From the IMG/VR virus record IMGVR_UViG_3300045988_162372: 64,000 bases of DNA. The stretch is one strand, 5' to 3'. The notes beneath the pieces are model-generated. The model did no database searches. It was given only the letters and a program-made list of their open reading frames with translations, and was not told the DNA's origin. Source of the stretch: a virus. Positions 3,693 to 59,162 of the stretch are shown here, one piece after another; within the stretch, counting starts at the first letter, position 1; each line of letters begins with the position of its first letter. The position numbers and the translations under genes are program-made.

Positions 3693-3708
3693 TGTACTCA
3701 AATGAGTT
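3693..3708 (+). repeat. dyad motif TGTACTC-N4-GAGTA, copy 1
   Basis: TGTACTCAAATGAGTT, 40 nt after stop of 3132-3653. Confidence 0.8.
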
Positions 3709-5586: not shown

Positions 5587-5660
5587 GGGCCTGTAACTCA
5601 GTCGGTAAGAGTAACTGACTCATAATCAGGAGGTCGCAGGTTCAAGCCCTGCCAGGCCCA
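5587..5660 (+). tRNA. tRNA with CAU anticodon (elongator Met or Ile2/lysidine type)
   Basis: Hand-folded cloverleaf: acceptor GGGCCTG/CAGGCCC, D stem ACTC/GAGT, anticodon loop CTCATAA, T stem GCAGG/CCTGC, T loop TTCAAGC, A73; no encoded CCA. Confidence 0.9.
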
Positions 5661-5665
5661 CACAA

Positions 5666-21711: not shown

Positions 21712-22044
21712 ATGGGAAGAAAAAAGAACTATATCAAAATTCCAGTAAAACCTCTCTTATCAGCAATAACAGCAGAAAATAAGACCGTTGAGTCTGTTTT
21801 GCGTAATATCAATGTAAACGAGGATTATGTTACAGATTTTCCTACTGATGATTTGGGAAAAGAAATAAACAAAGATTTAAATTTTCTTCAACTTTTCAAT
21901 GGCTTGTTATGTGGAAAAGACATCTACGAAATGTTGGATGTTTCAGATTCTTTGATACGTGAGAGAGTGTTGGAACGTCTCGCATATCTTATGGGTATAG
22001 ACTATCAGATAATTTACTACCTTTGGTTGAACGAGAACAAATAA
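21712..22044 (+). CDS. hypothetical protein (110 aa)
   Basis: ORF track. Confidence 0.7.
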   Translation: MGRKKNYIKIPVKPLLSAITAENKTVESVLRNINVNEDYVTDFPTDDLGKEINKDLNFLQLFNGLLCGKDIYEMLDVSDSLIRERVLERLAYLMGIDYQIIYYLWLNENK

Positions 22045-22061
22045 AAACTAATATAGTTATT

Positions 22062-22325
22062 ATGGCAACTACAAAAGGAAATAAAAAACGCCCCAAATAT
22101 ATACAAGATATTGTGAATGATATAAATGCACAACTTAGGGCTAACTATATCAAAGACGAAAATAATGACTTGTTCGTATGGCTGTGTGACTATCTTCTCA
22201 AACGGAAAATGTATGAAGGCTACAATTTCCACAAGTATGGAGATAAGATAGTGAACGGCAAACCTATCGTATGCCTTGCAGGAACAGCAGACAAGAACAA
22301 GTTTGACTTTCTTCAAGTATGGTAA
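22062..22325 (+). CDS. hypothetical protein (87 aa)
   Basis: ORF 22023 (non-ATG start) trimmed to ATG after the upstream stop. Confidence 0.6.
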   Translation: MATTKGNKKRPKYIQDIVNDINAQLRANYIKDENNDLFVWLCDYLLKRKMYEGYNFHKYGDKIVNGKPIVCLAGTADKNKFDFLQVW

Positions 22326-22340
22326 TAACAATGTACGCGA

Positions 22341-22736
22341 ATGAGTACGATACATCTAAATAACAAGAGGTTAAGAATAAGGTTTGGAGAAACAAAATTC
22401 CTCAAGCCCAACAAAGGGCTGCAAGACATCTTCGTGAATAATCTTTGTATAGGCTACGTTATTACAGAGGATAAGAACTTGCTTTCACCTATCTATGAAC
22501 GCTTTTGGTCAAACGGCTTGTCTGAAAAACAGATTGAGGATAACAAACAATCACTATCAAAGTATGACAAGTGTGATACTGAAGATGAAGGCTATTATCA
22601 AGTCGGCTATATGGTTGACAGTGATACTTGTGACTCTAAGGAATGGGATATACGTCTTAGAGAATTTTGTGAAACAATTTATAACATCTTAATCAACGAC
22701 AAGGAATATGTACAAGGTAATTATAACAGACAATAA
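22341..22736 (+). CDS. hypothetical protein (131 aa)
   Basis: ORF track. Confidence 0.65.
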   Translation: MSTIHLNNKRLRIRFGETKFLKPNKGLQDIFVNNLCIGYVITEDKNLLSPIYERFWSNGLSEKQIEDNKQSLSKYDKCDTEDEGYYQVGYMVDSDTCDSKEWDIRLREFCETIYNILINDKEYVQGNYNRQ

Positions 22737-26092: not shown

Positions 26093-26941
26093 ATGTTAAA
26101 AGAGTTTTTAGAACATAACAATCCATGTGATATCTGTTTGAATGAAAAATGTAGGGGAAAACATACTTGTAATTGTTCTACTTGTAAGATACTTGCTGAT
26201 TGTCCCAAATTTTTACGTGCTGTGATAAGAATAACGAATAAATGTACCCAGACTTGTTCGCATTGTTGTTTTAAGAGTTCACCAAAAAGCAATATCATGA
26301 TGAATATCGAAATGGCAAAAAATGTGGCGGCATTTATTAAATCTAATAAGGTATGTGATTTGAATGTGATGGGTGGTGAATTTTTCTGTAACCCAGATTG
26401 GTATGAAATACTTTCCATTCTTATAGACAGCACTCATTCCATGCGCCTTGTAACAAACGGTGATTGGGCGGCCAATAAAGTTATTGCAGACAAAGTTATA
26501 GAATTTATAAATTTAAACAAAAATAAAGTTAGAATAGCCATATCAAAAGACAAGTGGCATACAAACAAGAATATTGAAAATGCAGAAGAATATATTAAAC
26601 AGACTGGCGCATTATATCATGTCGCCTTACCGTCAGAGACAACTGATAGTTCCATTGTTCCTATTGGAAGAAGTGAACTTGAATATACACCTTTTTATTC
26701 TTTTGCTGGTTGTTATTGCCATAATCCCTATGAACAATATACGATTCTTATTGATGAGAATGGGGATATCTATAAATGTGGGTTTGGCGCATGGAAATAT
26801 GCAAATATCAAGGGCTACATAAATGGGGGTTTCAACAAAAAGTTTAAAGAATTTAACAAAAAATTTTATGACATCTTTATTCCATCTTGCAAGTCTTGTC
26901 TGTATGCTTGTAATAAAGAACGTCGAGTTAAAACGGATTAA
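26093..26941 (+). CDS. radical SAM protein with Cys-rich N-terminal extension
   Basis: CX3CX2C in ITNKCTQTCSHCCF; upstream CDIC..C..C.C..C...C cluster; GGE-like MGGEFF. Confidence 0.7.
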   Translation: MLKEFLEHNNPCDICLNEKCRGKHTCNCSTCKILADCPKFLRAVIRITNKCTQTCSHCCFKSSPKSNIMMNIEMAKNVAAFIKSNKVCDLNVMGGEFFCNPDWYEILSILIDSTHSMRLVTNGDWAANKVIADKVIEFINLNKNKVRIAISKDKWHTNKNIENAEEYIKQTGALYHVALPSETTDSSIVPIGRSELEYTPFYSFAGCYCHNPYEQYTILIDENGDIYKCGFGAWKYANIKGYINGGFNKKFKEFNKKFYDIFIPSCKSCLYACNKERRVKTD

Positions 26942-28683: not shown

Positions 28684-28707
28684 CAACAATAAACATTGAA
28701 AGAAAAT

Positions 28708-29553
28708 ATGATTACAAAAGTACAAATTACAGATAACTCCAAACTGCCTTTGAAGTATGCAAAGGAACTGGACGCTTTCAAGAATGGTAAAGAGTATAAT
28801 TTCAAAGGTGGTGTCAATGTTATCATCGGCAAAAACGGTAGTGGTAAGACTACACTTATGAAAATGATTGCCATGTATATGTTATGCAATGATAGCCTTT
28901 GTTCAAGACTTCCTAATTTTGCCAATTATGGAGCATTGAAATTAAATGATATATTTAACGAAGAGGAATTGTTGGATGGCATTAAAATAATGGCAGATTA
29001 TGCAGGAGTTGTATATAATTGCCTTGCGCATAATGAAATGAAAGATGAGGATATTTTGGATAATGTTACCAATATGAACTATTATCTAAGCAATAAGGGT
29101 GCGTCTACTGGTGAAACAATCGTCAATAGTGTGGGGCAATTATTCAAGTTTGCATTTAGGAATACGAATATTGAGTTTCCTTTGAAAGAGATTATGGATA
29201 TAGTAAAAAACAAAACGTGCAACGATTTTTGGGAAGAGCGGCTGATAAACTTGTTGAAGTATTATAGGGATAATAGAGATAATTTCATTACACAGCAGGA
29301 TTTTGAATATACGTTCCTTTTGGATGAACCAGACAGGAATTTGGACATTACCAATATTGATAGTGTATATGAAATACTTTCCCATAGAAAAGAAATGACA
29401 CAACTAATTACAGTTATTCATAATCCAGTATTGATTTATAAATTATCAAAGGTCAAGGGAAAGAATAAGGTGAATTTCATCGAACTTACTGATGGGTATT
29501 TGAATGACATTAGAAATGTATTTGAAAATTTATATTCTAAGGTTAGGGGATGA
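28708..29553 (+). CDS. ABC/SMC-like P-loop ATPase (AAA_15/21-like)
   Basis: Walker A GKNGSGKTT; Walker B/D-loop FLLDEPDRNLD; ORF 28696 (TTG) trimmed to ATG. Confidence 0.7.
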   Translation: MITKVQITDNSKLPLKYAKELDAFKNGKEYNFKGGVNVIIGKNGSGKTTLMKMIAMYMLCNDSLCSRLPNFANYGALKLNDIFNEEELLDGIKIMADYAGVVYNCLAHNEMKDEDILDNVTNMNYYLSNKGASTGETIVNSVGQLFKFAFRNTNIEFPLKEIMDIVKNKTCNDFWEERLINLLKYYRDNRDNFITQQDFEYTFLLDEPDRNLDITNIDSVYEILSHRKEMTQLITVIHNPVLIYKLSKVKGKNKVNFIELTDGYLNDIRNVFENLYSKVRG

Positions 29554-35874: not shown

Positions 35875-37095
35875 ATGAAACGTGCATACAAATACAAACT
35901 GAAACCAACAATGAGGCAGCAACAAATGTTGTTGCAGCATTTCGGTTGTTGCCGTTTCATATACAACTGGGGATTGGATAGGAAAAAGAATGCATGGACG
36001 AATGAAAAGAAATCCATAGGTTATCTTCAACTTGCAAGGGAATTAACGCTATTGAAGAATGACGGCGAACATGGTTGGCTGAAAAATGTGGCAAACGAAA
36101 GTTTGCAGCAATCATTAAGAAACTTGGATAATGCTTATACGCAGTTCTTCAAGGCAAAGAAGGGATTCCCCAAATTCAGATCGAAGAAACACAGCAAGAA
36201 CGTATGCAAGTTCATCAACAACGTGCGCTTTGACTTTGATAAATGGAAAGTCAGAATACCCAAGATGGGATGGACAAAGTTGTGTCACAACAAAGCATTT
36301 GACTTGTCCAAATGCAAGATTGGAACTCTTACAGTGTCACAGGACAAATGTGGAGACTACTGGTGCGTAATCATTGTCGAGGATGGTGAAAAACCGAAAC
36401 CGAAAGCCAAGATTTCGGAGAAAACTGCCGTTGGCGTAGATTTAGGCATCAAAGATTTTGCCATATTGTCCGATGGTACAAAATATGGAAATAACAAATT
36501 CCTTGAAAAAGGACAAATACGCTTGAAGAAATTGCAACGCAGGTTTTCAAAAGCACAGAAAGGGTCGAAAAGAAGGGAAAGGCTGAAAATTAAAATCGCA
36601 AGACAGCACAGAAGAATATCCAACCGCAGGTCGAATTTCTTGCACAAACTGACAACCGATTTAATGTGCAAATATGACACAATCTGCCTTGAGAACCTTA
36701 ATGTGCAAGGGATGATGCAAAATCATCATTTGGCAAATGCAATTTCAAGCGTTTCATGGAATGAATTTGTAAGACAACTTGCATACAAAGCCGAATGGAA
36801 TGGGAAAAACGTGATATTTATCGGCAGGTTTGAACCCAGTAGCAAGACTTGCTCTTGTTGTGGGTACATTAAGAAAGACCTATCATTGAAAGACAGAAGT
36901 TGGATTTGCTCCAAATGTGGCGCAAGCCATGACAGGGATGTGAATGCAGCAATAAACATACGCAACTTTGGATTGCATCCACAATCGCAGGTTGCGATAG
37001 AAAATAAAATCCCAGAGGTAACTGGGATAAATACGGACGGTGAGGGCAATGGCACAAGTCACCCTGTGAAACGTCAAGATAATAAACCGTGTTAG
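35875..37095 (+). CDS. tnpB: TnpB (OrfB) RNA-guided endonuclease, IS200/IS605 family
   Basis: N-terminal YKYKLKPT..Q...L...FG.CRFIYN; RuvC-I GVDLGIKDFA; RuvC-II ICLENLN; zinc finger CSCCG...CSKCG; RuvC-III HDRDVNAAINI. Confidence 0.9.
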   Translation: MKRAYKYKLKPTMRQQQMLLQHFGCCRFIYNWGLDRKKNAWTNEKKSIGYLQLARELTLLKNDGEHGWLKNVANESLQQSLRNLDNAYTQFFKAKKGFPKFRSKKHSKNVCKFINNVRFDFDKWKVRIPKMGWTKLCHNKAFDLSKCKIGTLTVSQDKCGDYWCVIIVEDGEKPKPKAKISEKTAVGVDLGIKDFAILSDGTKYGNNKFLEKGQIRLKKLQRRFSKAQKGSKRRERLKIKIARQHRRISNRRSNFLHKLTTDLMCKYDTICLENLNVQGMMQNHHLANAISSVSWNEFVRQLAYKAEWNGKNVIFIGRFEPSSKTCSCCGYIKKDLSLKDRSWICSKCGASHDRDVNAAINIRNFGLHPQSQVAIENKIPEVTGINTDGEGNGTSHPVKRQDNKPC

Positions 37096-37238: not shown

Positions 37239-37760
37239 ATGCGAAAGATTTTTACATATATTGGAATTTGTTTTGCAATAGCAGGGATGGTCAATGCTGC
37301 AATGGTACATAGTGAAGAAGCAAGGGAAAACGTAACAACTGAAATGTTATTGAATGATAATGTAGACGTTTCATCTGAAATTGTTAAAGAGGATAAAGAA
37401 CTTCTTGCAGAAGAAAACAATATGAAGAAAAACAAGAACACTATTACCCATGTAAAGGTTACTTGTTATCAGCCAGTAGAAGCACAATGTGATAGTGATC
37501 CACTTATAACGGCAGATGGGAGCAAGATTGATTTACATAAATTAAAGAAAGGAAATGTTAAGTGGTGCGCTATTTCACGTGATTTGTTATGGCTCTTTCC
37601 AAAGGATAAACCTAAACGTGTACATATTGAGGGATATGGCATATACGAAGTGAGAGACGTTATGAACAAGCGTTTTAATCACAGAGTGGATATTCTTATT
37701 CATCCGTCAGAAAAGGCTAATATCAGTGAAGAAAATGTAAAAATGACAATTTTAGGATAA
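37239..37760 (+). CDS. secreted 3D-domain (MltA/RlpA-like double-psi barrel) cell-wall protein
   Basis: Signal peptide MRKIFTYIGICFAIAGMVNA; VTCYQPVEAQCDSDPLITADGSKI matches the 3D-domain signature. Confidence 0.65.
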   Translation: MRKIFTYIGICFAIAGMVNAAMVHSEEARENVTTEMLLNDNVDVSSEIVKEDKELLAEENNMKKNKNTITHVKVTCYQPVEAQCDSDPLITADGSKIDLHKLKKGNVKWCAISRDLLWLFPKDKPKRVHIEGYGIYEVRDVMNKRFNHRVDILIHPSEKANISEENVKMTILG

Positions 37761-40431: not shown

Positions 40432-41157
40432 ATGAGCAAACCGAAACATACGGTATTTTGTCCAGAATGCGGGCGTAGCAAGATATTGTTTGAAACAGAG
40501 AAGAAGGCAAATTTGTTTCTTCAATACAATTCAGACGATATAGCACACAGCAATAGATACGGAAAGAAACCAGTAAGGAGTTATTATTGCAAGGTGTGTG
40601 GCGGATGGCACGTTACAAGTGTCAAAGAGAATCTATATCAAGATTATAGCCTTACTGATAGAGTTGTTTCTTTATATCATCAAGACGAATTAAATAAAAA
40701 ATTAATTTTGAAACATATAACTTCCTCTCCAACAATCAAAGAAATTGTAGATAATTTTCAATATATTGGATTATTTCTGACAAATGAGTCAAAAGATGTA
40801 CTGAAACAATATATCGAAGATAATTTTGCTGATATGATAAAAGATGGAAAGATGTATCTTGACCATTGTACAATTCTACATCGCTCTCAAAAAGAGGATA
40901 AGAAAGCATTACGTTGTCTTGACAGATATATCAAGGATAGTGGCAAAGGTATAAAGGAAACTATTGTTATAAACAAAATAGGGTATAACAATGAAGCTAT
41001 GGCGTTTGGATGTAGGGTGAATACTCCTTGCGTGAATACCCAACCTCATATTACTATCTGTACATTCGGTAACGGAAAACCTATGGCAAGTAATTCTATT
41101 ACTAATTGGAAAGATATCAATCCTATTAAAGTGAAAGCTATCATACATAGAGTTTAA
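40432..41157 (+). CDS. zinc-finger / 2H-phosphoesterase (LigT/CPDase/Acb1-type) fusion protein
   Basis: N-terminal CPECG...YYCKVCGGWH; C-terminal two HxTx motifs (LDHCTILH and QPHITICT) about 60 aa apart; SD AAAGGAGGT. Confidence 0.6.
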   Translation: MSKPKHTVFCPECGRSKILFETEKKANLFLQYNSDDIAHSNRYGKKPVRSYYCKVCGGWHVTSVKENLYQDYSLTDRVVSLYHQDELNKKLILKHITSSPTIKEIVDNFQYIGLFLTNESKDVLKQYIEDNFADMIKDGKMYLDHCTILHRSQKEDKKALRCLDRYIKDSGKGIKETIVINKIGYNNEAMAFGCRVNTPCVNTQPHITICTFGNGKPMASNSITNWKDINPIKVKAIIHRV

Positions 41158-41496: not shown

Positions 41497-41530
41497 CACT
41501 ATCAGAACAAATAAAATAGGAGGTAATATT

Positions 41531-42088
41531 ATGAACACAACTTTTAATTTCAAGAAAGGCGATTATGTAATCTTTACTGATACATATAATAATGATTATG
41601 TAGATATCATCGGGGATTATAACCCAGAGAATAATAGTGTAGAGGAAATTGTTTCCGTTATGTATATGGATAGAAATGGAGGTGAGGAAGAAGGATTTAT
41701 CTACTATCGTACAACTTTATTTTTAGATGCAGTAAAGGAAATGCGTCTTGCAACAAAGGATGAGGTAAACTTTTTGAACGCTGTCTTAATGGATGATGAC
41801 AATAAGTTTGACAAGGATAAGATGGAAGTTGTTAGCAGGGAAACTGGTACGAAGAAGACATTTCATCTGACAAGAACCGTCATGCTCGGTGGCTATTATC
41901 AAGACACTATTGATGTGGAAGCAGAGAATTTGGAAATTGCTTTAAACAAGGCCACTGAATTCAATTCATCTTCTGAAAATGTATGGGCCACTATGGATAA
42001 GGATGAAATCATTATGGACGAATCTGATATTAAACGGATAGAAATTTCTGATGCTAACGGAGAAGAGTATCGTGAAATTGATTTTTAA
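41531..42088 (+). CDS. hypothetical protein (185 aa)
   Basis: ORF track; SD. Confidence 0.7.
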   Translation: MNTTFNFKKGDYVIFTDTYNNDYVDIIGDYNPENNSVEEIVSVMYMDRNGGEEEGFIYYRTTLFLDAVKEMRLATKDEVNFLNAVLMDDDNKFDKDKMEVVSRETGTKKTFHLTRTVMLGGYYQDTIDVEAENLEIALNKATEFNSSSENVWATMDKDEIIMDESDIKRIEISDANGEEYREIDF

Positions 42089-42096
42089 CAATGTAA

Positions 42097-42114
42097 TGTA
42101 CTTGAATGAGTACA
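42097..42114 (+). repeat. dyad motif, copy 8 (TGTACTTGAATGAGTACA)
   Basis: The C-to-T change at stem position 6 would keep a G.U pair in RNA; 9 nt after stop 42088. Confidence 0.75.
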
Positions 42115-42381
42115 AAGGGTTTCAAAAATAATTTATTTAATTTTTATTCTCAAATGATTTAAATTTATAAAAAGTATGAAAAGAAACAACACTATCGAAG
42201 AATTATCAACAAAGGCTATGTTTATCAAACATTTGTTGAGGCAAAGGAGGGTACAACTGTTTTCGACGGAATTGACGAAGCGATAGATAATGCAATTGAT
42301 GCAACTGATAAAGGGGGTAGTATCTATGTTATTGTTGATAACGAGAATAATAAAGTACAGGTACTTGATGATGGATGTGGA

Positions 42382-43791
42382 ATGACACATACATTACTAA
42401 AAGATGTGATGCAAAATGCAACTTTTCATAAAGCAGATGGAAAATCTATTGGTATTAATGGTATTGGCATAAAAAAGTTTGCAGCTATTGTTGGTAATCT
42501 TCGTGGTTGTCGTTTGAATGTATTGTCAAGTAAGGGTGATGGATATGTTTCTTCTGCCACATTGCATATTTCTCCGAATGATGAGGAGATTATTCACCCT
42601 ACTATAGAATGGTTTGAGAATGGAAACTTACCAGATAATGGTATGAATATTATTAATGGGAAGTTGAAAGGTACTATTGCAACTTTAACTTATACAGAAG
42701 AAGTTAATTTTACCGATGATATTATTGAGCAATATTCAATTAAATATGCAGAACAAATTTTATTGAACAAGAAACACATTTTTATTAATGATAAGGAATT
42801 AGTTGCAATTGACCCTACTCATACAATAGGTATCAATGATATCAATAAAGACCTTATTGTAGATGAAGAAAATAGATTGTATATTGCTAATTTTAAATTA
42901 GAAGCCTTTATTGAGGGACAAGAGAATATTAAAATACCGTTTATTGTAACATCTGTGCAGGCACTCGATCCGTCACTTCTTCGTAAAAAATATCCTTTTG
43001 AAAATAAGCCTTTTAATTATCTGGGTGGTATATACACTATTCGTGGTGGACGTTTCATTGATTATGGTAATAATACCAATATAATGTTTGCTATGGAAAG
43101 CAGTAAACTTGGCTCAACCAAAGGCAGTGGAATGTATGGAGATATTAGTGGTAGCCTAGCTGGATACAACCGTTTGATTATTAATCTGGATAATACGGAA
43201 AGCGCACGTTTATTTGGTGTCCAATCAATTAAAAGCAAGGGAATAATTCCATTGCATGAAAATGACAACCTTTTCAAATATAAGGTTAATGTAAATGGGG
43301 TGAAAATTACGGTATTTGAAGCTATTTCATACATTCGTTGTTTTAACCATAAATTCTACACAACAACCATTAAATCTTCTAAATATAATTGGAAGAATTT
43401 TAGAGAAGATGTTTACAAGAAATTTTATGAATACGATTTTTCTACGTCCAAACAGATTAAAAAGTCAGTAACTTCTGCCACGGCACACAAGAGTAAGAAT
43501 AACGAAGAGGCGATTTATACCATCGCTGATAGTGCTTGTTATCTTAAAGTTCAATGGAAACAGAACGCTCATAACGACAAGGCAAAAATTGTGTATTCAT
43601 TACCTAATGAAGATTGTTTGTTGTACAGACGCAATAAAGAAAATGTAAATCTAATTAGTAAACTTACAACACTTTTCATAGAAGATTTTAAGTGTTTCGC
43701 TGATTATGCTCATTATGATAGGGAGGGTATTAAGAATTTACTAATTGCAAGAACAAATCAATATCTTGATAAAATGAAAGAGGAGGAATAA
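42382..43791 (+). CDS. GHKL (HATPase_c_3/MORC-like) ATPase; the listed ATG truncates the ATP-binding domain
   Basis: ATG 42382 is the M of the G1 box DDGCGM; the N box EAIDNAIDA is encoded in the same frame at 42277-42303; frame open from 42163 with no ATG/GTG/TTG. Confidence 0.7.
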   Translation: MTHTLLKDVMQNATFHKADGKSIGINGIGIKKFAAIVGNLRGCRLNVLSSKGDGYVSSATLHISPNDEEIIHPTIEWFENGNLPDNGMNIINGKLKGTIATLTYTEEVNFTDDIIEQYSIKYAEQILLNKKHIFINDKELVAIDPTHTIGINDINKDLIVDEENRLYIANFKLEAFIEGQENIKIPFIVTSVQALDPSLLRKKYPFENKPFNYLGGIYTIRGGRFIDYGNNTNIMFAMESSKLGSTKGSGMYGDISGSLAGYNRLIINLDNTESARLFGVQSIKSKGIIPLHENDNLFKYKVNVNGVKITVFEAISYIRCFNHKFYTTTIKSSKYNWKNFREDVYKKFYEYDFSTSKQIKKSVTSATAHKSKNNEEAIYTIADSACYLKVQWKQNAHNDKAKIVYSLPNEDCLLYRRNKENVNLISKLTTLFIEDFKCFADYAHYDREGIKNLLIARTNQYLDKMKEEE

Positions 43792-43845
43792 TATGGAAAA
43801 GTATTTTGTAATTTTTTATTATAAACCAAAGTAAATTTTAATAAA

Positions 43846-44238
43846 ATGAAAAATTTAACATTAAACAATGTGCGAATTGCATGGAATGAAAGTAAGAATA
43901 GTGAATTCTTAAAAACTAAAATGGTTGTGTATAAGTTGGTATTTCCAGATAATACTTGCTATGTAGGATTGACATCACTCACTATGTATGAAATGCTTTC
44001 AAATCTATGTAAGTATTATCATCAGGGAATGAGTAGAATTAATCAAAAAATAAAAGATTATCGTTCTTTCCTTGCTGAAGTGCTTTATGAAGCGGAAGAT
44101 AAAAATGATGCCGAGGATTATAAAAAATATGCAATTTCTAAAATAGTTAAAGAAATTGCACAGAAAGGGCATCTAAGAAAATACCACCATTTACAAGATG
44201 ATAATATTCTAAAAGTCTTATTAAACGATAGGTGGTAA
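43846..44238 (+). CDS. GIY-YIG-like domain protein (degenerate)
   Basis: VVYKLVFPDNTCYVGLT fits GIY-x9-YIG spacing; downstream catalytic residues not clearly seen. Confidence 0.4.
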   Translation: MKNLTLNNVRIAWNESKNSEFLKTKMVVYKLVFPDNTCYVGLTSLTMYEMLSNLCKYYHQGMSRINQKIKDYRSFLAEVLYEAEDKNDAEDYKKYAISKIVKEIAQKGHLRKYHHLQDDNILKVLLNDRW

Positions 44239-44973
44239 ATTCTCTGTAAATTTATTTATTCTTTCGTTAGTCATATCAACATATATTTTGAATTTTTCAA
44301 AACCAATATATTCAAAGTTATGTTGTAATGCAGCAAGAGCAACCGTACCACTACCCATAAATGGGTCTAAGACTATTATATTGTTATTCTCTTTTGATGG
44401 GATACAATCCATAATATTGTTAGGCAAGTCTATTGGGAATGGTGCGGGATGCTTTGTATTTTTTTCAAATGGGAATGACCATATTTCGTTTTTGTATTTT
44501 GTCGTAAGGCTACGATAAAAATTAGGTTTAGTTGTTTTTGTTAGCCAAAATACTAATTCAGTCATTGGTAGGAAACGACAAGTATTGACGTTATTCGTAC
44601 TTCCCCTATCCCATATAATTTCTTGTCTGATTTTGAATTTTGTTTTGAACAGCCATTGATAAGGTGATACTATTTCACCTTTATGTATTCTGTTTTTATG
44701 ATTGTAAAACATTGATCCGTCAGACTTTAAGACTCTGAAACATTCATTTAAGAAATTTATTTGCCATTTTTGGTATTCATCTTCTGGAATATTATCGACA
44801 TTTACATCATCATTGTAATCTATCGTTCCTTTCCATTTCTTACCTTTTTGTATACCGTTAAGACCTGCTTTATTGTAAGGTGGCGAAGTAATGATTAAAT
44901 CTATTGAATTATCATCCAATAATTTCAGGCCATCCATCACATCTATATTATATATTCTGTTTGTTTCTAACAT
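44221..44973 (-). CDS. DNA methyltransferase, beta class (N4-C or N6-A)
   Basis: Motif IV DLIITSPPYN near the N-terminus, motif I VLDPFMGSGTVALAA near the C-terminus; only minus-strand gene in a 60-kb + block. Confidence 0.85.
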   Translation of the reverse strand: MLETNRIYNIDVMDGLKLLDDNSIDLIITSPPYNKAGLNGIQKGKKWKGTIDYNDDVNVDNIPEDEYQKWQINFLNECFRVLKSDGSMFYNHKNRIHKGEIVSPYQWLFKTKFKIRQEIIWDRGSTNNVNTCRFLPMTELVFWLTKTTKPNFYRSLTTKYKNEIWSFPFEKNTKHPAPFPIDLPNNIMDCIPSKENNNIIVLDPFMGSGTVALAALQHNFEYIGFEKFKIYVDMTNERINKFTENLPPIV

Positions 44974-45074
44974 ATCAAATCATTTTATATATATAAATAG
45001 AGTACTGAATATATTTAGGTATAACTTTTAGTAGTTTTTAACTATTAATATTTGGTTATTTGAGTTAGAATTTA

Positions 45075-45082
45075 TATTTTTG
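45075..45082 (+). promoter_or_regulatory. -7 promoter box TAnnTTTG
   Basis: TAttTTTG(CA) upstream of ATG 45099. Confidence 0.55.
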
Positions 45083-45098
45083 CATTATTAAAAATAAA

Positions 45099-45383
45099 AT
45101 GTATAAAGTTATGGCAGTAAGAAAAGAAAGAAGTATTTACTTCACCAGAAAAGAAGAATTGGATTTTGTGAGACTTTGTACTATTCATGGTTTCAAGAAA
45201 CGTGATATTATTAAAGACGAAGAAAATAGAGTGACTAAGTTTGAAATCTATCTGCCGTTTATAAGTGGCAGTATGGAGAAGAAATTGAGCAATGTGGCAA
45301 GATACACGAATAGTCGTAGGACTTCAGCACCTTGCATTGTAGGACGGCAACATCTTATCAAAGTAACATTTAACAAAAAATAA
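45099..45383 (+). CDS. hypothetical protein (94 aa)
   Basis: ORF track. Confidence 0.65.
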   Translation: MYKVMAVRKERSIYFTRKEELDFVRLCTIHGFKKRDIIKDEENRVTKFEIYLPFISGSMEKKLSNVARYTNSRRTSAPCIVGRQHLIKVTFNKK

Positions 45384-45958: not shown

Positions 45959-46300
45959 ATGAGAGACTATGGAGTTATAGAAAAAGAAGATTTGTCTGCT
46001 GAAAATATTTATAAGACTCTTAATGAGGTCTTTAAAGATGTGGATAGAGAGTATGATTATGCTGTGATTTACTACGAACGCAAGGAAGATAAAATTACGA
46101 GATTAACAGAATTATTTGGTTGTCCTTGTTCTCAAAACATAGTGGATGTTAATGATTATGGCTGTATTGACTACTATAAAGACTTGTATGATGCCACATA
46201 CAGATGGCGTGAATTACAACAGATAACTAATAAGAGTTATCATAGGGTTGCTATTGTTTCTTATCTTGATTCAAAAATTATTATTTCAGAAGATGAATAA
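45959..46300 (+). CDS. hypothetical protein (113 aa)
   Basis: ORF track; SD. Confidence 0.7.
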   Translation: MRDYGVIEKEDLSAENIYKTLNEVFKDVDREYDYAVIYYERKEDKITRLTELFGCPCSQNIVDVNDYGCIDYYKDLYDATYRWRELQQITNKSYHRVAIVSYLDSKIIISEDE

Positions 46301-46682
46301 TCAAGATATATTATTTACAGATGAAATTTGGAGAAACATTGCAGGTTATAATGGCAAATACCAGATTTCAAATATGGGTAGGGTAAGACATAATGAAACA
46401 ATATTAAAACCTTACCCAAATTCTTGTGGATATTTGAGAGTTGGATTATATAAAGAAGGGAAGCATAGAAAAGAGCTGGTACACAGACTTGTTGCAGATG
46501 CTTTTATTGACAATCCTTATAATTTGCCAGTTGTTAATCACAAGAATGAGGACAAAGAAGATAATAGGGCTACTAATTTAGAATGGGCTACAATAAAAGA
46601 AAATATGAATTATGGCTCATTACAGGATAGGAAATCAAGGAGCTTAAAATTAGCATATAACAGAAGAAAAATAATCTATTAA
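46293..46682 (+). CDS. HNH homing endonuclease with NUMOD4-like N-terminus
   Basis: YNGKYQISNMGRV (NUMOD4); VHRLVADAF; VNHKNEDKEDNRATNLEW (HNH_3); ORF 46248 trimmed to ATG 46293. Confidence 0.85.
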   Translation: MNNQDILFTDEIWRNIAGYNGKYQISNMGRVRHNETILKPYPNSCGYLRVGLYKEGKHRKELVHRLVADAFIDNPYNLPVVNHKNEDKEDNRATNLEWATIKENMNYGSLQDRKSRSLKLAYNRRKIIY

Positions 46683-57882: not shown

Positions 57883-57918
57883 TAACATTATAAATTTTGA
57901 TTTCTGTGTTGATTTCAC

Positions 57919-57926
57919 TATCTTTG
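57919..57926 (+). promoter_or_regulatory. -7 promoter box TAnnTTTG
   Basis: TAtcTTTG(CA) inside the longer ORF call 57897. Confidence 0.65.
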
Positions 57927-57956
57927 CACTTAGTTAATATAAAATATAAATATAAT

Positions 57957-59162
57957 ATGGAACAAATTATCAAACATTTTACAGACAATGACGCTTATAC
58001 GTTTACTTGTCAATACTACATATTGAAGACATATCCTCGTGCTGAAGTAGAATATAAATTCTTTGATAGGAATCATACAAAGTATCCGAAAGGCTTTGCC
58101 GAGCTATTACAAGAACAGGTGAATTACATGAAAGATGTGATTATCACAGACGAAGAGATTGCATTTATGTCTAAGAATATGTATTATCTTCCTTTATGGT
58201 ATTTTACTTTCTTGAAAGGTTATAGATTTAACCCTAACGAAGTAACTATTTCACAAGATAATGAGGGTCATCTTGATATTGCGGTAAAAGGAAAGTGGTT
58301 TTCAACGATTATGTGGGAAATGCCATTACTTTCTTGTATTTCTGAATTGATGCATAAACTTAATGGTGATGAGGATAAATATAATTTAGCAACAGAATAT
58401 TGGAAAAATTATGATAAAATGACCAAAGCACTTCAAAATGGCTTAATCATCTCCGATATGGGAACAAGACGCAGATTTTCTTATAATTATCATCACAATG
58501 TAATTAGATCTTTTGTTGAAGCATCTGAAAAATCAATGGAAGAACTTTATAGTTACGGAGAATTTGTAGGAACATCAAACGTATGGCTTGCCAAAAGATA
58601 TAATTTAAGACCAATCGGTACGATGTCTCATCAAATTATTTCGTTTGAAGAAACTGTTAGTGGTATCTTTGAATGTAATAATCAAACAATGTCTAAATGG
58701 AGTGAATGTTATGATGGTTTAAACGGAACATATCTCTATGATTGTTTTGGTGATAAAGTATTCTTTAACAATTTCCAAACAAAATATGCAAAATTATTTG
58801 ATGGATTAAGAGTAGATAGTGGTGACGAGTTTGAACAAATAGAAAAAATCATTGATAAATATAAGTCTTTGGGAGTTGATCCTAAGACAAAAACTGTCGT
58901 ATTCAGCAATGGGTTGAATTTGGATAAAGCATTGGAAATACATAAATACATTGGTGGAAGAGTTAGAGATACATATGGTATCGGCACATTCTTTACTTGT
59001 GATATTGAGAATGTTAAACCTTCAAATATTGTAATCAAATTGGTAAAAGGGAGAATTACTGAACAACGTGAATGGCATGATTGTGTGAAGCTCTCCTGTG
59101 ATAAAGGAAAGACACTGGGTAATCAAGAGAAATGTAACTATTTGTCTAACATTATTAATTGA
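57957..59162 (+). CDS. pncB: nicotinate phosphoribosyltransferase
   Basis: DNDAYTFTC and YRFNPNEVTISQDNEGHLDIAVKGKWFSTIMWEMPLLSCISE parallel remembered E. coli PncB DTDAYKLHM / [41 protein letters not shown]. Confidence 0.85.
   Translation: MEQIIKHFTDNDAYTFTCQYYILKTYPRAEVEYKFFDRNHTKYPKGFAELLQEQVNYMKDVIITDEEIAFMSKNMYYLPLWYFTFLKGYRFNPNEVTISQDNEGHLDIAVKGKWFSTIMWEMPLLSCISELMHKLNGDEDKYNLATEYWKNYDKMTKALQNGLIISDMGTRRRFSYNYHHNVIRSFVEASEKSMEELYSYGEFVGTSNVWLAKRYNLRPIGTMSHQIISFEETVSGIFECNNQTMSKWSECYDGLNGTYLYDCFGDKVFFNNFQTKYAKLFDGLRVDSGDEFEQIEKIIDKYKSLGVDPKTKTVVFSNGLNLDKALEIHKYIGGRVRDTYGIGTFFTCDIENVKPSNIVIKLVKGRITEQREWHDCVKLSCDKGKTLGNQEKCNYLSNIIN

Follow-up and report, generated by a model that had tools for sequence, protein, structure and literature searches.

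ATPases that join a GHKL domain to an S5-fold domain form dimers with ATP and drive partners that are bound to DNA. MutH and Vsr, both small nickases, owe their activation to MutL. Iyer, Abhiman and Aravind reported in 2008 that MORC and paraMORC ATPases are linked to nucleases and methylases in restriction-modification (R-M) operons; the nucleases described there are of the RE-fold, Vsr, HNH and HKD types, and GIY-YIG is never mentioned (PMC2292703). MORC- and paraMORC-associated systems, predicted by comparative genomics in 2008, remain largely untested. In phage T4, degradation of host DNA is started by endonuclease II (EndoII), a GIY-YIG enzyme without a DNA-binding domain and similar in size to the small protein considered here, and T4 DNA is spared by its modified cytosine (PMC2764454). 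In this work we describe a three-gene cassette located at positions 42,097 to 44,973 of a 64,000-nucleotide stretch of viral DNA (IMG/VR record IMGVR_UViG_3300045988_162372; the whole stretch is referred to as the window). It comprises genes for a MORC-like GHKL ATPase, a small homologue of GIY-YIG nucleases and, in convergent orientation, a beta-class DNA methyltransferase (MTase). An earlier inspection of the letters alone, here termed the sequence-only reading, had called this set an R-M or MORC-like island; the reported MORC-R-M linkage that it quoted is indeed present in the 2008 paper.

The family to which the ATPase belongs is tiny. Nine clusters were found among 5.8 billion proteins, and eight out of 1.84 billion cluster representatives matched at E<1e-30. 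Neither tblastn with the ATPase nor megablast with positions 41500-45100 gave a match in 50,697 GenBank phage records, and an alignment search of IMG/VR, JGI metagenomes and GTDB genomes found no relative of the ATPase. Genomic context was taken from exact-protein look-ups in ENA and Logan contigs, so that the 12 lineages considered here (designated by locus numbers) are a sample and not a census. They are uncultivated, reside mostly on large phage contigs and encode ATPases that are 25-70% identical to that of the window.

All three genes, with the MTase convergent, are present in eight of the 12 lineages (the window, L005-8, L009, L014/15, L017, L018/19, L020/21 and L022-24). Two further lineages combine ATPase and MTase without the small gene, the MTase being convergent in L010 and located on the same strand in L013 (189-kb contig). 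In L001-4 (176-kb contig) the ATPase is accompanied by the small gene, with no MTase within 10 kb, and in L012 by a canonical GIY-YIG gene in inverted orientation, shortly before the end of the contig. MTase orthologues (55-85% identical) adjoin the ATPase in nine lineages other than the window. Non-syntenic lineages with a readable flank of at least 5 kb on one or both sides of the module have unrelated genes there. Comparison of L001, L013 and L014 with the 37-52 kb neighbourhood of the window revealed homologues of the cassette genes only, and comparison with the whole window added only distant matches elsewhere, such as NAPRTase. The ATPase and small genes overlap by 4 nt in L001, 20 nt in L009 and 11 nt in L017, which suggests coupled translation. 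Pairwise protein identities co-vary, with Spearman coefficients of 0.71 for ATPase and MTase and 0.66 for ATPase and small protein (45 non-independent pairs). Given the conserved linkage amid unrelated flanks, the gene overlaps and the co-varying identities, the three genes are best understood as a functional cassette that has been conserved and linked for long in large uncultivated phages of low G+C. The check for co-occurrence that the sequence-only reading had proposed therefore came out in its favour in many diverged loci.

The three proteins differ in their mean pairwise identity, which is 69% for the MTase, 32% for the ATPase and 33% for the small protein. A methylase that is far more conserved than its partners is the usual pattern in R-M systems. 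Fast evolution of ATPase and nuclease next to a slowly evolving methylase fits a conflict system. It is conceivable that there is no functional unit at all, and that an orphan anti-restriction methylase merely lies beside an unrelated pair of ATPase and GIY-YIG genes, their adjacency being inherited synteny. Phages often carry orphan MTases, the MTase gene is on the opposite strand and probably has its own promoter, L001 possesses the pair without the MTase, and all loci come from related low-G+C phage-like contigs. Yet the adjacency persists down to 25% ATPase identity, amid unrelated flanks and after inversion of the MTase (L013) or the GIY-YIG gene (L012), and the protein identities co-vary; we therefore consider inherited synteny of unrelated genes improbable.

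The 538-aa ATPase was rebuilt from the window by mending a frameshift (see below). The ATPase sequence of the window matched the Pfam families HATPase_c_3 (E 1e-9, 39 bits; cut-off 25) and HATPase_c (34.3; cut-off 26.4). Residues E35, D38, N39, D65xGxG69 and G93-G98 are invariant in the nine closest homologues, which places the protein in the GHKL superfamily; in the window itself, the frameshift separates motif I and most of motif II from the remainder. An AF2 model was available for a 99%-identical homologue (P0001; pLDDT 76.6). Foldseek searches of the PDB with this model listed SMCHD1 first (7e-11), then MORC2, MORC3 and MORC4, and TRAP1/Hsp90 (probability 1.0, 395-504 aligned columns). 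E values for the ATPase modules of SMCHD1, MORC2, MORC3 and MORC4 ranged from 7e-11 to 1e-9, with low TM-scores of 0.33-0.44. When a profile of 17 family members was compared with the PDB, MORC4 (3e-8) and MORC3 ranked first, with Mlh1/MutL, Topo VI B and HtpG lower.

As in MORC proteins, the GHKL domain is followed by an S5-fold transducer domain with a conserved basic residue. The lysine of SIKSKG (K353), invariant across 17 diverse family members, is a candidate for the phosphate sensor contributed by the S5 domain. The segment G285-I-Y-T-x-R-G-G-R293-F-I agrees with the MORC signature GhXhhpXXRhl at nine of 11 positions (G285 is invariant and R293 at least 90% conserved), and HMMER places GIYTxRGGRFI opposite GIMMYHNNRLI of MORC4, a segment that is non-significant alone. 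The C-terminal domain (about residues 440-538) had no match in Pfam. ParaMORC families differ in their C-terminal domains and motifs; for instance, an ExxxH motif marks paraMORC2, and paraMORC3 has an RE fold at its C-terminus (PMC2292703). Judged by profile and fold comparisons, the designation as a MORC-like GHKL+S5 ATPase is justified, with placement in strict MORC or in paraMORC1-5 left aside. The sequence-only reading had called the protein GHKL/HATPase_c_3 and the island MORC-like, and the Pfam scores above cut-off, the family profile and Foldseek all agree with this.

That the ATPase is instead one of the known phage GHKL proteins (rIIA, a type II topoisomerase subunit or an Hsp90-like chaperone), unlinked to its neighbours, appears extremely unlikely. 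When Foldseek was run against viral models, topoisomerase ATPase subunits, rIIA and Hsp90-like proteins were listed at 1e-10 to 1e-7, and TRAP1 and Hsp90 are among the PDB matches. However, no PHROG family matched at E<=0.01, hence none of the rIIA or topoisomerase families, the GenBank phage records gave no tblastn match, and neither an rIIB nor a Toprim partner is adjacent. In the profile search, too, MORC4 and MORC3 came out ahead of MutL, Topo VI B and HtpG, and these identities were rejected. In PADLOC and NCBIfam, sub-threshold matches to GHKL motifs only were obtained (MzaB, Topo VI B, MutL, histidine kinases), those to topoisomerase VI B and MutL being far below the NCBIfam cut-offs. 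MzaB of the MZA defence system scored 19.8 bits in NCBIfam (cut-off 850) and E 0.014 in PADLOC, through GHKL motifs only.

The small gene (43846-44238, plus strand) encodes a 130-aa protein homologous to GIY-YIG enzymes of the T4 EndoII type, assigned by BLASTP, hhalign and the topology of its AF2 model. Taken alone, the protein had no match in Pfam, PHROG or NCBIfam, and a PDB profile search with the window clade gave no GIY-YIG signal. The AF2 model (pLDDT 85) shows an N-terminal hairpin followed by a b-b-a-a-b-a core; Foldseek listed the UvrC GIY-YIG domain first and Hpy188I among the top matches, neither of them significant (E about 0.5). The protein can be linked to GIY-YIG because canonical relatives bridge the sequences. 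Distant cassettes encode proteins of 128-142 aa (one annotated as 162 aa) in the same position. Pfam GIY-YIG (PF01541) matches three of the four relatives that were scanned (best 3e-7), and precomputed annotation assigns PF01541 to them and also to the protein of the L022 type. The window protein aligns over its full length with the canonical protein of L012 (BLASTP, 2e-21), hhalign of the window clade against the canonical clade gave 99.7% (E 1.7e-25), and the canonical profile retrieved T4 EndoII (2wsh) first among solved structures (4.3e-5). Homology, core topology and motifs thus place the window protein in the GIY-YIG superfamily. The sequence-only reading, which had pointed out this open reading frame (ORF) and its GIY-YIG-like fold, would have been given up had the fold not been that of a nuclease and the genes not been syntenic elsewhere; the fold is GIY-YIG-like, and the genes are syntenic. 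A homing endonuclease with its own DNA-binding domain was rejected as an identity, the small protein being a catalytic core plus a short hairpin.

Across the 12 lineages, the small protein has the canonical catalytic set in six, has lost catalytic residues in four including the window, and is absent in two. The six canonical proteins share invariant Y, Y, G, R, H, E and N residues. In the window protein Y29, Y39, G41 and N127 are kept, and the catalytic Arg, His and Glu are replaced by M50, L54 and K93, respectively. The whole window subclade has M, A, I or V at the Arg position, L, T or I at the His position, and an invariant Lys at the Glu position. The helix-1 Arg, the His or Tyr after it and the metal-binding Glu of helix 3, by which active GIY-YIG enzymes are recognised, are therefore missing from the window protein. 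In T4 EndoII, the E118A exchange abolishes catalysis and improves DNA binding, the R57A mutant binds DNA poorly and is among the least active, and the N-terminal region helps DNA binding (PMC2764454). In view of the lost residues and of these mutant phenotypes, the window protein, a GIY-YIG homologue, is very probably not a canonical nuclease. At 38-45% identity, the proteins of the window clade still have 32 invariant residues, and the ORF is intact in every lineage; an arginine of the N-terminal hairpin (R10) is invariant and specific to this clade, and all six clade members are basic (pI 8.8-9.5). Such conservation indicates a protein that is still under constraint and probably acts as a non-cleaving DNA-binding subunit.

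The MTase gene (44221-44973, minus strand, 250 aa) encodes a protein matching Pfam N6_N4_Mtase (PF01555; 1.8e-33, 116.8 bits, cut-off 26.7) over profile positions 1-221 of 221, and phrog_67 at 2e-52. It is of the beta class, with motif IV (SPPY, in ITSPPYN) at residues 30-33 ahead of motif I (FMGSG, in DPFMGSGT) at residues 205-209. The best solved relative is N4CMT of Adineta vaga (8s9m; E 1e-52, 103 of 228 aligned residues identical, i.e. 45%), which methylates cytosine to N4-methylcytosine (m4C) at CpG (PMC10406627). Enzymes forming N6-methyladenine (m6A) match far less well (DpnA 6e-12, CcrM 2e-9). On the strength of the SPPY motif and the N4CMT match, the MTase is probably an N4-cytosine methylase. 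It appears to be the only clearly functional enzyme of the window cassette and may serve in self-marking or anti-restriction. The small gene and the MTase gene are convergent and their 3' ends share 18 nt (44221-44238), in agreement with the sequence-only reading, which had also noted the SPPY...FxGxG signature. Its statement that no other minus-strand gene follows after 2.4 kb is plausible in that the MTase is the only long, family-supported ORF of that strand after 3 kb, but eight shorter ORFs (62-119 aa) remain there. According to a 2023 paper in the Journal of Biological Chemistry, the best bacterial N4CMT orthologues share under about 40% identity. With 45% identity to the catalytic domain of the rotifer N4CMT, the window MTase is among its closest known relatives, and phage enzymes of this family may be nearer to the source of the rotifer gene.

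In the window, the ATPase gene is split. The ORF of about 540 aa that the sequence-only reading had drawn from 42097 does not exist as an intact frame: frame 1 contains stop codons at 42103-42105 and 42160-42162, and its first ATG, GTG or TTG is at 42382. The true start, deduced from the start of intact homologues and from DNA alignment, is the ATG at 42176 in frame 2, which joins frame 1 only if position 42214 is read twice. From this ATG the window encodes MKRNNTIEELSTK, and GYVYQ... goes on in frame 1 from 42214; intact homologues that are 99% identical (P0001, 538 aa) start with MKRNNTIEELSTKGYVYQ. In the DNA alignment, 99%-identical relatives have ACAAAAGG where the window has ACAAAGG. 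Aligned with the contig of P0001, the window reads ATCAAC-AAAGGC and the relative ATCAACAAAAGGC, which corresponds to a 1-nt deletion in the A-run at 42211-42213. Loss of one A from this run has thus split the reading frame into a 5' segment in frame 2 (42176-42214, plus strand) and a 3' segment in frame 1 (42214-43791, plus strand). The latter, assigned by HATPase_c_3, AF2/Foldseek and the family profile, holds the N, G1 and G2 boxes, the S5/transducer region (GIYTIRGGRFI, SIKSKG) and the C-terminal beta+alpha domain. The N box (DEAIDNAIDA) and the G1 box (DDGCGM) lie in frame 1 at about 42275-42385 and had been correctly spotted before. As encoded, the products are a 36-aa peptide (42176-42286), whose frame-2 ORF ends at the TAG at 42284-42286, and at best a 469-aa protein (42382-43791), which starts at the Met of the G1 box and is devoid of the N box and most of the G1 box.

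Two other explanations of the split were rejected. A non-ATG start for a single 540-aa ORF disagrees with the homologues, which show the ATG at 42176 and the extra A. Programmed -1 frameshifting as the default was dismissed for two reasons: the site C-AAC-AAA-G allows single-tRNA slippage on A-AAG alone and is no canonical heptamer, and close relatives do not need such slippage. The exact 469-aa product was found on three JGI/IMG contigs, the longest of 351,506 bp, and an identical 460-aa call on contigs from ENA and Logan, the longest of 351,485 bp. Intact alleles of 537-540 aa occur on more than 60 other contigs, and related cassette proteins on contigs of 307-368 kb. The frameshift is probably a real, strain-specific allele of a huge phage of about 351 kb; the assemblies with the truncated allele may share reads, and an assembly error is possible. 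Since the ATPase is frameshifted in this strain, its role would be dispensable here. The window copy of the cassette thus appears degenerate in two ways, by the frameshift in the ATPase gene and by the replaced catalytic residues of the small protein.

The MutL and MORC R-M precedents, together with the logic of EndoII, lead to a model in which the methylase marks, the nuclease nicks and the ATPase licenses. In the ancestral cassette, the N4CMT-like SPPY methylase would place m4C on the phage's own DNA; N4CMT itself favours CpG. The small GIY-YIG enzyme, lacking a DNA-binding domain of its own, would nick or cleave the unmarked DNA of the host chromosome or of a co-infecting phage. The MORC-like ATPase would dimerise on ATP, clamp DNA and recruit, position or license the nuclease, as MutL does for MutH and Vsr. 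Breakdown of host DNA, exclusion of competitor phages, or both, would be the payoff. In the window, the restriction arm would have decayed or been repurposed, with a small protein that is intact but non-catalytic and an ATPase that is frameshifted. We give about an even chance to the cassette being an ATP-driven nuclease module that discriminates by methylation, like R-M systems or like EndoII with hydroxymethylcytosine (hmC); the m4C chemistry, the methylation-sensitive cleavage and the interaction of ATPase and nuclease are what we infer. What stands of the R-M island proposed by the sequence-only reading are the three domains and their linkage. As a restriction system the window copy is at most a candidate: its methylase is intact, but the ATPase is frameshifted and the linked nuclease candidate is without the catalytic Arg, His and Glu that are found in six other lineages.

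Several points weigh against such a nuclease module. Two lineages have no GIY-YIG gene and one clade is catalytically impaired, yet ATPase and MTase are still kept, which argues that GIY-YIG cleavage is not the sole selected function. One reading of this is recurrent decay of the restriction arm, known from many R-M systems; the other is a nuclease-independent activity of the ATPase such as clamping or compaction. In addition, L001 has no MTase in its vicinity, and PADLOC contains no matching system. All loci are low-G+C phage-like contigs, many of them short, and shared descent could be behind part of the linkage. For the window protein itself, Foldseek backs the GIY-YIG fold only weakly (E 0.54), and both nuclease activity and methylation sensitivity of the cassette members are predicted from sequence.

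If the ATPase acted without a nuclease, it might clamp and compact or silence DNA in a MORC-type system, with the dead GIY-YIG protein as a DNA-binding or mark-reading adaptor and with the m4C methylase setting which DNA is spared or targeted. The state of the window clade would then be its current function, not decay. In this clade the Arg, His and Glu have been replaced together in a protein that is otherwise intact, with its 32 invariant residues, its invariant R10 and the basic character of all six members (pI 8.8-9.5). The EndoII E118A mutant, which binds DNA better while being catalytically dead, and the contribution of the EndoII N-terminal region to binding (PMC2764454) set a precedent for such an adaptor. 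The two lineages that keep ATPase and MTase without a GIY-YIG gene and the structural neighbours MORC2/3/4 and SMCHD1 point in the same direction. With the full canonical catalytic set in six other lineages, however, the ancestral role is most simply nucleolytic. Moreover, DNA compaction is not known for any prokaryotic or phage MORC, and the ATPase function is dispensable in the frameshifted strain. We regard a system of this kind as rather unlikely. Its most far-reaching form, a phage MORC-based epigenetic self/non-self system that works without cutting and in which a dead EndoII-like subunit guides the ATPase to unmarked host or rival DNA, seems to us unlikely; if true, it would be the counterpart in prokaryotic viruses of eukaryotic MORC silencing and a case of a nuclease becoming a reader or adaptor. 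The cassettes offer a natural series for comparison: the nuclease is presumably active in six lineages, dead in four and missing in two, and in this strain the ATPase is frameshifted.

Upstream of the ATPase gene, 63 nt ahead of its true start, lies the dyad motif GTACTTGAATGAGTAC (42098-42113, plus strand), which the sequence-only reading had recognised as one copy of a repeated element. With at most one mismatch, GTACTNNNNNNAGTAC occurs in 11 copies in the window, all on the plus strand, against 1.1 expected by chance. The family, GTACTCAAATGAGTAY, has a 6-bp stem and a 4-nt loop. Its 16-nt sites start at 3694, 4098, 4668, 5667, 6755, 22333, 23008, 24190, 42098, 49189 and 51023. Most copies are located in short gaps, just past a stop codon and ahead of the next gene; the copy at 22333 is within the end of the 22023-22325 ORF region, just before the start at 22341. 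The motif is kept upstream of the orthologous ATPase gene in L016 and in L005 (a 70%-identical relative), where the flanks have diverged. The copy at 42098-42113 is probably a phage regulatory or RNA element that heads the transcription unit of ATPase and GIY-YIG genes, and the family could represent a promoter or operator, or else a hairpin for RNA processing or termination. On the absence of a host-type promoter, as asserted in the sequence-only reading, a sigma-70 scan was uninformative (30 sites, 29.7 expected). No purine run resembling a Shine-Dalgarno (SD) sequence precedes the start of the ATPase gene (42165-42175, AAATTTATAAAAAGT-ATG) or that of the small gene (43835-43845, TTTTAATAAA-ATG); the host may be one without SD-led initiation.

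The ORFs neighbouring the ATPase and small gene of the cassette had no match in PHROG. A gene for an IS605-type TnpB (OrfB) is located at 35875-37095 (phrog_506, 3e-124) and coincides with a local G+C peak of 0.40 compared with about 0.31; this gene, 5 kb ahead of the cassette, seems to have been inserted recently. On the other side, 46248-46682 encodes a homing-type endonuclease with NUMOD4 and HNH_3 domains (phrog_59, 3e-43); this ORF overlaps the upstream ORF 45959-46300 by 53 nt, and L005 has an orthologue at the corresponding position. The cassette lies in variable regions with many HNH endonuclease and TnpB genes, at these two positions and upstream in L001, and its genomic contexts differ. 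This would suit a selfish mobile element, in which the GIY-YIG protein is a present or former free-standing homing endonuclease that spreads between phage genomes and takes ATPase and MTase along as cargo. Large phages commonly encode homing enzymes of the GIY-YIG type. The small protein, however, is without the DNA-binding domain of homing enzymes such as I-TevI, and among solved structures it is closest to EndoII and not to a homing enzyme. Its gene is apparently coupled in translation to that of the ATPase, and lineages with a dead nuclease or none still keep the cassette. A selfish origin of this kind is very unlikely in our view.

A 241-aa protein encoded at 40432-41157 has an N-terminal zinc-ribbon-like CxxC pair and a tRNA_lig_CPD domain (2H cyclic phosphodiesterase; Pfam 7e-7) and may function in RNA repair or anti-defence. 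In the contig of the 70%-related phage L005 (positions 1-2173), a second, unrelated HATPase_c_3 protein, cut at the edge of the locus, precedes an Eco57I-like methylase of the gamma class (Pfam 5e-6). This second ATPase-methylase pair lies just upstream of the homologue of window positions 37239-37760, where the window has TnpB. Elsewhere in the window, genes were found for an NAPRTase of NAD salvage (57897-59162; Pfam 2e-45; homologue in L013), a radical SAM protein (26093-26941), an SMC_N/AAA_23 ATPase (28696-29553) and a tRNA-Met (5587-5661) immediately followed by a copy of the dyad motif; these are auxiliary genes typical of very large phages.

In the literature searched on GHKL/HATPase_c_3 with GIY-YIG in phages and on MORC in jumbo phages, including a comparative survey of 224 jumbo phages, no such cassette was described. 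The interest lies in the cassette as a family, of which the window copy is a degenerate example. If it works as proposed, GIY-YIG would be a third nuclease fold among MORC/paraMORC-associated systems, and such systems could be carried by huge phages instead of by their hosts, presumably for host-DNA breakdown or phage competition. It would also provide a tractable system of three proteins in which control of a nuclease by a MORC-type ATPase and reading of a methyl mark are combined.

Several described systems share features with the cassette. GIY-YIG type II restriction enzymes (Eco29kI, Cfr42I and Hpy188I, the last a weak Foldseek match) are likewise encoded beside a convergent methylase, but they need no ATPase and are larger, and the window protein is without catalytic residues. 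VcSduA, a GHKL-fused Shedu protein, resembles the cassette in the proposed control of a nuclease by a GHKL ATPase during conflict between phage and bacterium; unlike the cassette, it is one fused bacterial protein with a PD-(D/E)xK (DUF4263) nuclease and no methylase (PMC12137116). The MTase shares the SPPY motif IV and the beta-class motif order with Adineta vaga N4CMT and bacterial beta-class m4C methylases, but unlike N4CMT it has no chromodomain.

With MutL-MutH and MutL-Vsr the cassette has in common a GHKL+S5 ATPase and a small stand-alone nickase tied to the methylation state of DNA, although in the cassette this interaction is presumed. MutH and Vsr are RE-fold enzymes of repair, whereas the cassette nuclease is GIY-YIG, has no MutS-like sensor and belongs to a setting of phage conflict. 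T4 EndoII (DenA) with hmC is similar both in protein and in logic: a phage GIY-YIG protein about 130-140 aa long, which has an N-terminal region but lacks a DNA-binding domain apart from its core, attacks unmodified cytosine DNA, and the phage's own DNA is modified. The mark in the cassette would come from a linked methylase (putative m4C) and not from hmC synthesis. EndoII works alone as a tetramer, whereas the cassette protein has an ATPase partner, and the window protein lacks the equivalents of R57 and E118. The MORC/paraMORC R-M operons, finally, resemble the cassette in that a GHKL+S5 ATPase, nearest in profile to MORC4 and MORC3, accompanies a stand-alone nuclease and a DNA methylase. 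The theme of a MORC/paraMORC ATPase with nuclease and methylase is thus known, and what differs in the cassette is the EndoII-type GIY-YIG protein, the N4CMT-like SPPY methylase, the lack of an SF-II helicase and the phage carrier.

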